Positions 2,546 through 4,468 of a stretch of 5,486 nt of DNA are shown one piece after another. This DNA comes from Escherichia phage ID2 Moscow/ID/2001. Below the pieces are notes generated by a model that saw only the letters and a program-made list of their open reading frames with translations, was not told the origin of the DNA and ran no database searches. The translations under genes were made by a program, and so were the position numbers. Position 1 is the stretch's first letter. Every line of letters starts with the position of its first letter. The stretch lies in the sequence record NC_007817.1; one strand, given 5' to 3'.

Positions 2546-3829
2546 ATGTCTAACGTTCAAACTTCCGCTGACCGCATTCCTAACGACCTTTCTCACCTCG
2601 TCTTCGAGGCTGGTAAAATCGGCCGTTTAAAAACTATCTCCTGGACTCCAGTTGTCGCTGGCGACTCATTTGAAACTGAGATGGTAGGCGCTATTCGCCT
2701 TTCTCCACTCCGTCGCGGCCTTGCCGTCGACTCTCGCGTGGATATCTTCTCTTTCTATATTCCGCATCGTCATATCTATGGTCAAGAATTCATTGAATTC
2801 ATGAAAGCTGGCGTTAATGCCACTCCTCTCGCACCTGTTACTACTGCCTCTGGCTGGGATGCTTCTGCCTATCTTGGCACTATTCCATCCTCAAACCTCA
2901 AGGTTCCTAAATTCTTACATCAAGGATACCTTAATATTTACAACAACTACTTTAAGCCACCGTGGGATGCTGACCTTACATACGCTAACCCATCTAACAT
3001 GCCTGAACAGGATTATAAATGGGGCGTTCGTGTCGCTAACTTAAAATCTATCTGGACCGCCCCCTTACCTCCTAACTCTAAAACATCAGAGACTATGACC
3101 ACTGGCGCTACGTCTATTGATATTATGGGCCTGCAAGCTGCTTATGCTAAATTGCACACCCAACAAGAACGTGACTACTTCATGACTCGCTATCGCGATA
3201 TTATGAAAGACTTCGGAGGTCACACCTCCTATGACGGTGATAACCGTCCTCTGCTGCTTATGCGCTCTGAATTTTGGGCCTCTGGCTATGACGTCGACGG
3301 TACTGACCAATCCTCTTTAGGTCAGTTCTCCGGTCGCGTCCAACAAACATTCAATCACAAAGTACCTCGCTTCTATGTACCTGAACACGGCGTCATTATG
3401 ACTCTCGCCGTTACTCGCTTCCCTCCTACTCATGAAATGGAGATGCACTATCTTGTCGGTAAAGAATCTTTAACCTATACCGACCTCGCCTGCGACCCTG
3501 CTCTTATGGCTAACCTGCCTCCGCGCGAAGTATCCCTTAAGGAATTCTTCCACTCCTCGCCGGACTCCGCTAAGTTCAAAATTGCCGAGGGCCAATGGTA
3601 TCGCACGCAGCCTGACCGCGTCGCATTCCCTTATAACGCACTTGACGGCTTTCCTTTCTACTCTGCTCTGCCGTCTACTGACTTAAAACAACGTGTCCTA
3701 GTTAACACTGATAACTACGACGAAATCTTTCAGTCTATGCAACTCGCACACTGGAATATGCAAACTAAATTTAATACTACCGTCTATAGACATATGCCTA
3801 CGACTCGTGATTCAATCATGACGTCATAA
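2546..3829 (+). CDS. F: Major capsid protein F
   Basis: 427-aa ORF, the same length as phiX174 F. The N-terminus MSNVQTSADRIPNDLSHLVFEAGKIGRLKTISWTPVVAGDSFE matches G4/phiX F from memory. AAGGA SD at 2535-2539 with 6-nt spacing. Confidence 0.95.
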   Translation: MSNVQTSADRIPNDLSHLVFEAGKIGRLKTISWTPVVAGDSFETEMVGAIRLSPLRRGLAVDSRVDIFSFYIPHRHIYGQEFIEFMKAGVNATPLAPVTTASGWDASAYLGTIPSSNLKVPKFLHQGYLNIYNNYFKPPWDADLTYANPSNMPEQDYKWGVRVANLKSIWTAPLPPNSKTSETMTTGATSIDIMGLQAAYAKLHTQQERDYFMTRYRDIMKDFGGHTSYDGDNRPLLLMRSEFWASGYDVDGTDQSSLGQFSGRVQQTFNHKVPRFYVPEHGVIMTLAVTRFPPTHEMEMHYLVGKESLTYTDLACDPALMANLPPREVSLKEFFHSSPDSAKFKIAEGQWYRTQPDRVAFPYNALDGFPFYSALPSTDLKQRVLVNTDNYDEIFQSMQLAHWNMQTKFNTTVYRHMPTTRDSIMTS

Positions 3830-3840
3830 AGCCTATAACG

Positions 3841-3878
3841 TGACAGGGGGAAAAATTTTAATTTTTCGCCCCCTGTCA
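3841..3878 (+). repeat. Extended inverted repeat/hairpin in the F-G intergenic spacer; candidate complementary-strand origin and/or T_F terminator
   Basis: TGACAGGGGG (3841-3850) is the perfect reverse complement of CCCCCTGTCA (3869-3878). The 18-nt AT-rich interior (AAAAATTTTAATTTTTCG) can itself pair AAAAATT with AATTTTT. It is the only long perfect stem in the window and sits in the 99-nt F-G spacer. Confidence 0.6.
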
Positions 3879-3928
3879 GGTTGAACAAGCGCAAGCGCGT
3901 TAGCTGCCTAACTTAAAAGGAAATTCAA

Positions 3929-4468
3929 ATGTTTCAGAAATTCATCAAAAAACATAACGCTCCGTTAACTTCTCAGCCCGCTATCTCTAAGGCTGTTACT
4001 CCATCTATGACCGCCGCCCCTCTTGTCACTACACCTCTCGGCGTGTCTTCTACTCAATTATTCTTGGAACTTACAACCACTGCCGCCGCTGGCGGCTTCG
4101 CTTACGCTATCCGCGTAGACAATTCTAACCCTACTGATAATCAGGTCTTCTCCGTCTGTGCTCACATCACATCTGACGTGGACCCTAAATATATTGCGTG
4201 CCTCGTTCGCTTTGAGGTCACTGCTGGTACCACTCCTACCGCTATGCCTCCTGTCTATGATGCTTACCCTATCGCTGGTTACTATGACGCTGGCTCTTAT
4301 ACTGTTGAAGACTGCGCTACTATTCCTACTCACGCTGTCTCTTCTGGCAACGATGTATATGTCGGCCTTATGCTTTTCTCTCGCATGTGGCCCGTTGCAA
4401 AACTATCCGGTATCGCTTCCCTTAATCAGGTAAACAAGGAAGTAACCGTTCTCCAACCTCTTAAATAA
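3929..4468 (+). CDS. G: Major spike protein G
   Basis: 179-aa ORF in the canonical position after F (phiX174 G is about 175 aa). AAGGA SD at 3917-3921 with 7-nt spacing. Ser/Thr/Ala-rich composition typical of the beta-barrel spike protein. Confidence 0.9.

Follow-up and report, generated by a model that had tools for sequence, protein, structure and literature searches.

A perfect tandem repeat of six nucleotides in the short stretch between two phage genes raises the question whether the repeat as such has a function, whether it is part of a larger structure, or whether it has arisen by chance. The case discussed here concerns a complete microvirus genome of 5486 nt with a G4-like backbone (hereafter "the window", i.e., the whole stretch of DNA that was analysed), in which the hexamer AAGCGC is found twice in direct succession and without mismatch (AAGCGCAAGCGC, positions 3887–3898). 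The repeat is found exactly where a preliminary description of this DNA had placed it, and begins 5 nt past a large hairpin in the same spacer; that description had considered a small secondary stem formed by the self-complementary GCGC, a protein recognition element, and coincidence in a short GC-rich spacer. In our reading, to which we assign a probability of about 0.75, the repeat is a small conserved stem-loop which, together with the large hairpin, forms a complementary-strand origin of the phiX174 type (n'-pas) on the viral + strand.

The F-G spacer and its conserved 3' block

All genes of the window are encoded on the + strand, and in the Microviridae the viral strand is the coding-sense strand. 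At the genome level, the closest relatives are FL68 and FL76 (97.7% identity) and ID204 (96%) of the species Gequatrovirus talmos, followed by ID18/WA14 and the G4 clade (both ~85%), Lilledu (~75%), and phiX174 (68%). The element lies on the + strand of the non-coding spacer between genes F and G, which comprises 99 nt, with the F stop codon at 3827–3829 and gene G starting at 3929. The features referred to in the following are:

3837–3882, + strand: large hairpin (folding energy as DNA –20.6 kcal/mol, z = –6.35)
3878–3903, + strand: conserved 3' block AGGTTGAACAAGCGCAAGCGCGTTAG, containing the reported repeat (22 of 26 columns invariant)
3884–3901, + strand: small stem-loop with an outer helix (3884–3886/3899–3901), an internal loop and an inner hairpin
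3887–3898, + strand: perfect tandem AAGCGC, two units
3889–3896, + strand: inner hairpin GCGCAAGC, a mini-hairpin motif of the GCGNNAGC class, matching a published variant in sequence
3897–3904, + strand: second mini-hairpin motif GCGTTAGC, directly abutting the first and matching a published variant in sequence
3899–3912, + strand: 5-bp stem GTTAG/CTAAC as an alternative fold, a prediction confined to the window and the Lille group
3917–3921, + strand: Shine-Dalgarno-like AAGGA, downstream of the element
3929–3931, + strand: ATG of gene G, downstream of the element

BLAST matches of the window to the G4/ID11 clade end with gene F (position ~3832); the spacers of G4 and ID11 are unrelated in sequence to that of the window, in which the three stem-loops of the G4 origin (oric) are absent. 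The window spacer is homologous to the F-G spacer of phiX174, with 77–79% identity to phiX174 positions 2305–2371 over ~67–70 nt (E ~1e-5 to 6e-4). Stem-loops two and three of the origin of G4, which had been proposed as landmarks for placing the repeat, are therefore inapplicable here.

The phiX174 site occupies the same position as the window element, i.e., the F-G spacer of the viral strand, and the two are identical in the base of the large hairpin (ATAACG...GGTTGA), in its apex AAATTTTAATTT, and in the 3' block CAAGCG(C)AAGCGCG. The middle of the large stem, in contrast, is wholly different but compensated (TGACAGGGGG/CCCCCTGTCA against CC-GAA-GCGG/CCGC-TGAG-GG, window and phiX174 in that order), and the window spacer is, with its 99 nt, 11 nt shorter than that of phiX174 (110 nt).

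This pattern extends to the other phages with this spacer type. Across 11 phage spacers, 98% of the cells in the 19 pairs of the large hairpin are paired, versus 31–52% with slid partners, and 9 of the 19 pairs show changes on both sides; the base AAC(G)...(G)GTT and the apex (3853–3864) are invariant, while the mid-stem is variable but compensated. The apex is unchanged in all five phage lineages mentioned below, with AAATTTTT(T) in the plasmid copies, and holds a 2 × 6 tandem of its own (AATTTT twice, at 3854). When viral and metagenome contigs were searched for the pattern AAATTTTAATTT-N(8–22)-GGTTGA, AAGCG followed, among the matches listed, only in known microviruses, the remaining matches listed being AT-rich and due to chance.

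For the analysis of conservation, whole genomes of the five lineages with this spacer type (the window, Lilledu, ID18, PJNS002, and phiX174) were aligned, with pairwise identities to the window of 68–82% and 49% of the columns invariant overall; as IMG/VR is poor in Bullavirinae, diversity was drawn from phage and plasmid collections. Although non-coding, the block 3878–3903 ranks among the top 4% of all 26-column windows of this alignment. The longest invariant run is found elsewhere, namely the 30-nt CAACTTGATATTAATAACACTATAGACCAC at 500–529, which we take, judging by the phiX174 origin sequence, to be the viral-strand origin acted upon by gpA.

From a tandem hexamer to a small stem-loop

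Viewed purely as a repeat, the hexamer is not beyond chance. Perfect 2 × 6 tandems occur at six separate loci of the window (8, 784, 3854, 3886/7, 4741, and 4907), against a mean of 1.8 registers in dinucleotide shuffles, and the repeat at hand reaches one base further in the 5' direction, where it may equally be written as CAAGCG twice (3886–3897). What stands out above chance in AAGCGCAAGCGC is its conservation and its structural context.

The preliminary description had recommended following the repeat through related genomes, and it is indeed conserved there, albeit not as a hexamer throughout. The perfect hexamer repeat is confined to the talmos and Lille groups (FL68, FL76, ID204, MG1, Lilledu, Lilleto, and SECphi17), where it is invariant, while ID18, PJNS002, phiX174, and GR8 carry the one base shorter AAGCG-AAGCG-CG (AAGCGAAGCGC). 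In the plasmid homologues described below, it degenerates to AAGCCGCAGGCGC with units of unequal composition (AAGCCGC/AGGCGC). A repeat that is lost or variable beside a conserved hairpin, which had been named as the outcome that would speak against the repeat, is thus not what these genomes hold; yet the repeat unit itself varies in length. Neither a conserved unit nor a conserved period, as would be looked for in an iteron-like array, is found, the period being 6 in the window and 5 in phiX174, ID18, and PJNS002. The conserved entity is the small stem-loop and not the repeat unit.

This small stem-loop is composed of the short outer helix, an internal loop in which AA (3887–3888) is opposite GC (3897–3898), and the inner hairpin. 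Among nine distinct sequences, 96% of the cells are paired, versus 21–37% with slid partners. The pair 3884/3901 is A-T in five sequences and G-C in four (A-T in the phages, G-C in the ColE1-type plasmid copies), and the pair 3885/3900 is A-T in six, C-G in one, G-T in one, and mismatched in one; of the phages, the window, ID18, and the Lille group have the latter pair as A-T, phiX174 and PJNS002 as C-G. This sample is small and phylogenetically non-independent; the covariation amounts to roughly two or three independent events. The outer helix is also predicted independently by thermodynamic folding of the phiX174 and ColE1-type copies. Hence, the suggestion that the self-complementarity of GCGC might give a small stem was essentially right in that a small secondary structure is located 3' of the big hairpin.

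The inner hairpin belongs to a class of unusually stable DNA structures. According to a 2026 review on mini-hairpin DNA, GCGNAGC and GCGNNAGC fold into extraordinarily stable hairpins of two G-C pairs and a sheared G·A pair; the measured Tm is 76.5 °C in the case of GCGAAGC, 72.0 °C in that of GCGCAAGC, and 69.5 °C in that of GCGTTAGC. SSB binds poorly to such motifs, which G4 (GCGAAAGC) and St-1/alpha3 (GCGTTAGC) carry at their complementary-strand origins (PMC13037366, Tm values from Table 1). The two motifs of the window are the very sequences measured in the work on d(GCGAAGC)/d(GCGNNAGC) by Hirao and co-workers; in the window, the motif forms part of a longer helix interrupted by an internal loop. 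Modelled on this class, GCGCAAGC would form the pairs G3889-C3896 and C3890-G3895 and the sheared pair G3891·A3894, leaving C3892 and A3893 in the loop. ViennaRNA, whose parameters make no provision for mini-hairpins with a sheared G·A pair, for this reason places the inner hairpin in a different register, in which a GCG/CGC stem encloses a CAAG loop. For d(GAACAAGCGCAAGCGCGTTAG), the mini-hairpin, the GCG/CGC stem with its CAAG loop, and two tandem mini-hairpins may all be regarded as candidate registers.

At the homologous place, phiX174, ID18, and PJNS002 have GCGAAGC and a Xenorhabdus copy has GCGTAGC, while plasmids have GCC-GCA-GGC (Erwiniaceae, ColE1-type) or GCCC-GTCA-GGGC (pMB1 type), and two plasmid variants possess the non-GNA loops ATCG and TACC. 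In comparison with phiX174, ID18, and PJNS002, one extra C (position 3892) would convert the GAA triloop of GCGAAGC into the GCAA tetraloop of GCGCAAGC; this extra base keeps the hairpin and happens to give two copies of AAGCGC in succession, the hexamer periodicity being a by-product. The change from a GNA to a GNNA loop by a one-base indel within a covarying surrounding helix speaks for selection acting on the small hairpin itself.

Apart from GCGCAAGC and GCGTTAGC, the + strand of the window has no mini-hairpin motif, and two such motifs within 10 nt were obtained in 8 of 1000 shuffles. The second motif and the outer helix exclude one another, and the motif is not kept in phiX174 or PJNS002, which makes it an alternative fold of uncertain relevance. 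The stem GTTAG/CTAAC, in turn, is not predicted in ID18, PJNS002, or phiX174.

Related sequences beside plasmid origins

With a 70-nt query (3837–3906), the large hairpin together with the block was retrieved from four Erwiniaceae plasmids (pEPIR37, pET46, pERA54, and a Winslowiella toletana plasmid) at 77–80% identity. These copies are located in the parA-repE intergenic region and are directly followed by the consensus DnaA box TTATCCACA (one of them at 2501–2600). The site is the ori2-like origin of mini-F-type RepE replicons, at which, judged by its sequence, the hairpin plus block would be a candidate primosome assembly site. The ori2 region of the F plasmid itself lacks the conserved block; upstream of repE (~8100–8200), it contains GGGCGAAGCCC just upstream of two DnaA boxes, with the mini-hairpin motif GCGAAGC inside a larger inverted repeat.

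The block alone (GGTTGGACAAGCCGCAGGCGCGTCAG) is present in ~940 small mobilizable ColE1-type plasmids, and a variant of the pMB1/pBR322 type is found in 944 further plasmid records. In the three ColE1-type copies examined (one at 2355–2500), the block follows a long hairpin with the base ATAACG...GGTT and lies ~70 nt 5' of, and on the same strand as, GTATACTGGCTTA, which we take to be the oriT nick region on the basis of the ColE1/pBR322 bom sequence. The hairpin base of the ColE1-type copies, ATAACGCCG...GGGGTTG, corresponds nearly letter for letter to GTTATAACGCCGAAGCGG...GGGGTTGACC of phiX174. The same three copies are situated on the leading-strand template, ~290 nt downstream of an ori inferred from RNAI; for this purpose, ori was assumed to lie ~555 nt beyond the point where RNAII starts, in accordance with the ColE1 literature. 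At that position, the single-strand initiation signal ssiB has been described in ColE1-type plasmids (PMC3167613). From position and strand rather than from a published coordinate, we infer that the ColE1-type copy is ssiB and, from position likewise, that the copies of Erwiniaceae and ColE1-type plasmids correspond to the published ssiB or to the PAS of mini-F.

Compared with the phiX174-type signals known from plasmids—ssiA/ssiB of ColE1/pBR322 and the PAS near ori2 of mini-F—the window has the same arrangement, in which GGTTG-RMC-AA-(small GC hairpin)-GC-GKY-AG comes after a long hairpin, on a strand that likewise is exposed in replication or transfer. The plasmid copies differ in the inner hairpin, which is GCC-GCA-GGC or GCCC-GTCA-GGGC instead of GC-GCAA-GC, and contain no tandem repeat. 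What all these contexts have in common is DNA that turns single-stranded in replication or transfer; a shared transcriptional context does not exist, the ColE1-type copies, for example, lying antisense to the mob genes.

The scan of genome contigs for the block returned mostly chance matches in GC-rich genomes and matches to phiX174 spike-in contigs, for which reason only Enterobacterales matches with an upstream hairpin were kept. Contigs of ~5.4–5.5 kb in bacterial assemblies (e.g., Clostridium sp. N3C and Pseudorhodoferax sp.; 22 loci) are identical to phiX174 in the matched region, and PLSDB "plasmids" of 5386 nt from Vibrio, Cellulomonas, and Edwardsiella match phiX174 likewise; these are almost certainly sequencing spike-in contamination.

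A putative primosome assembly site, rival readings and a possible origin exchange

The best-supported explanation of the element is that 3837–3903 constitutes a putative PriA-type primosome assembly site, with the repeat as the sequence of its second, small hairpin. This reading builds on the homology to the phiX174 spacer, the conservation, the covariation of both helices, the mini-hairpin match, and the homologues beside plasmid origins, all of which are observed. The element lies in a non-coding spacer on the + strand, is homologous to the phiX174 site, and has a stable, evolutionarily kept hairpin; no other candidate origin was found in the window, a G4-type origin and further mini-hairpin motifs on the + strand both being absent.

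The primosome of phiX174 starts the complementary strand at a hairpin region which it recognises upstream of gene G (PMC9865509), and position 2305 is reported to be part of the site to which the primosome binds (PMC3606162). In the description of the pas, PriA binds to a fork-like hairpin (PMC5778457), after which PriB, DnaT, DnaB/DnaC, and primase follow (PMC5778457; PMC8246471). By homology, this phage and its close relatives would be PriA-dependent as well. In such a scheme, the incoming single-stranded genome would be coated by SSB, while the large hairpin (3837–3882) and the very stable small hairpin (3884–3901, core GCGCAAGC) would remain folded and largely SSB-free; PriA would recognise the structured site, PriB and DnaT would join, DnaC would load DnaB, DnaG would prime, and Pol III would finally turn the single-stranded DNA into the replicative form. 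By analogy with the cited literature on mini-hairpins, SSB exclusion may be the specific contribution of the small hairpin, which could serve as an SSB-free site or as a recognition surface.

The n' fragment of phiX174 presumably is 55 nt long and spans the large hairpin, with its end possibly immediately ahead of the AAGCG block; the small stem-loop may, thus, lie outside the minimal in vitro site. AAGCGG, considered as a possible n'-site consensus, is not used as evidence, a full-text literature search having yielded unrelated papers only. With regard to the hairpin itself, the laboratory-evolved phiX174 isolate EF380018 reads AACGTCGAAGCGG at position ~2312, where the wild type has AACGCCGAAGCGG, and this change falls in the lower stem of the origin hairpin. 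A recurrent T2305G within the primosome binding site of phiX174 has been reported during adaptation to Salmonella (PMC3606162).

Among the alternatives, a role at the RNA level has the most to be said for it, even if we consider it rather unlikely. In an F-G read-through transcript, the block would then form a hairpin with a GNRA tetraloop, r(GCGCAAGC), in the 5' untranslated region of gene G, and would owe its conservation to the stability or processing of the mRNA or to the translation of G. As is known for phiX174, the spacer is transcribed within late mRNAs. The block is located ~30 nt upstream of the Shine-Dalgarno sequence of G, and helices that covary in DNA would pair in RNA, too. Moreover, r(GCGCAAGC) is well known as a hairpin with a GCAA tetraloop (PMC13037366). 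However, the RNA form of such hairpins is far less stable, with a Tm of 39 °C for r(GCGAAAGC) versus 76.5 °C for the DNA (PMC13037366), and the motif recurs on the same strand in unrelated transcriptional contexts, i.e., upstream of DnaA boxes at RepE ori2-like origins and antisense to mob in ColE1-type plasmids. Furthermore, neither a terminator-like signal (GC stem plus T-run) nor a sigma-70 promoter (–35/–10, 16–18 nt spacing) is found in 3700–4050, and the element matches no Rfam family. Very unlikely, in our estimate, is a primase-only origin of the G4/alpha3 type, at which DnaG would recognise the mini-hairpins on SSB-coated DNA and prime nearby without PriA, despite the G4-like genome backbone, the identity of GCGTTAGC (3897–3904) with the octamer of the St-1/alpha3 origin, and a CTG trinucleotide next to it (3904–3906). 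The spacer is not similar to that of G4/ID11 and has no set of three stem-loops but is homologous to the spacer of phiX174, a phage that depends on the full primosome, and neither the octamer nor CTG is conserved (CTA in Lilledu, GCGGTAGG in phiX174 and PJNS002).

The two remaining readings concern the repeat itself. An iteron-like direct repeat, bound in its two units by a dimeric protein or by one making repeated contacts, would fit a perfect 2 × 6 tandem that is invariant in seven sequenced relatives; it is highly improbable on account of the shift in unit length from 6 to 5 and the degeneration to unequal units in plasmids, so that the protein recognition element envisaged in the preliminary description is not upheld. 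Moreover, the variable positions covary as base pairs and not in parallel between the units, and 2 × 6 tandems are common in this genome. That last point is at the same time the strength of the chance explanation, according to which the repeat came about by coincidence in a short spacer containing GC and is itself without function: perfect hexamer tandems exist at five other places in the genome, where chance would give in the order of one to two. The chance explanation is nevertheless scarcely credible, given the 22 invariant columns of 26 across lineages that are 68–82% identical to the window, the covariation, and the recurrence of the block in nearly 2000 plasmid records.

As a primosome assembly site, the element is best read as one of a known kind and as largely ordinary, pas signals being known from phiX174 and very similar sequences from beside plasmid origins; the literature search retrieved no description of a phiX174-type pas with a mini-hairpin in this group of phages with a G4-like backbone. 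For the repeat, this means little importance, as it is a by-product of a hairpin in a known origin type. The recurrence beside plasmid origins, in contrast, provides a concrete signature of sequence and structure for finding PriA-type single-strand initiation signals. As a tentative proposal, the large hairpin and the covarying stem-loop, GGTTG-RMC-AA-[GC-rich GNA/GNNA mini-hairpin]-GC-GKY-AG, could represent one homologous, recognisable PAS family, to which phiX174-like and some G4-like microviruses, ColE1/pMB1-type plasmids (at the ssiB position), and RepE ori2-like replicons may belong. To our knowledge, PAS elements are usually said to share structure but no consensus. If such a family existed, it would contradict that view, and the mini-hairpin would be a module specific for PriA/PriB recognition or SSB exclusion.

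The complementary-strand origin of G4 (G4/ID11) occupies the same spacer and strand and serves the same task, carries the mini-hairpin GCGAAAGC in its stem-loop I, and comprises three GC-rich stem-loops in ~136 nt without sequence similarity to the window spacer. The two types would also differ in their host requirement, G4 using primase alone and the window presumably the full primosome. The type of origin does not track the genus: Gequatrovirus talmos and ID18/WA14 have the phiX174 type, while G4, ID11, and ID8 have the G4 origin with three stem-loops. With Gequatrovirus members possessing a phiX174-type origin, dependence on the PriA primosome or on primase alone cannot be read from the genus.

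The Lille-group phages (MG1, Lilledu, SECphi17, and others) have spacers that are 94–95% identical to that of the window (3826–3932), while the F and G genes on either side share only ~77% identity with those of the window. ID18, despite its closer genome (82%), has a spacer with only 78% identity and a different stem. That the spacer is nearer to the Lille group than to this closer relative suggests an exchange of the origin module by recombination, and the complementary-strand origin, accordingly, behaves as an exchangeable module. Close by, the similarity of ID204 (genome of 5475 nt) to the window falls sharply just before G, the match ending at 3916, and ID204 has a different Shine-Dalgarno region and a different 5' end of G; the break at 3916 suggests a recombinant G gene.
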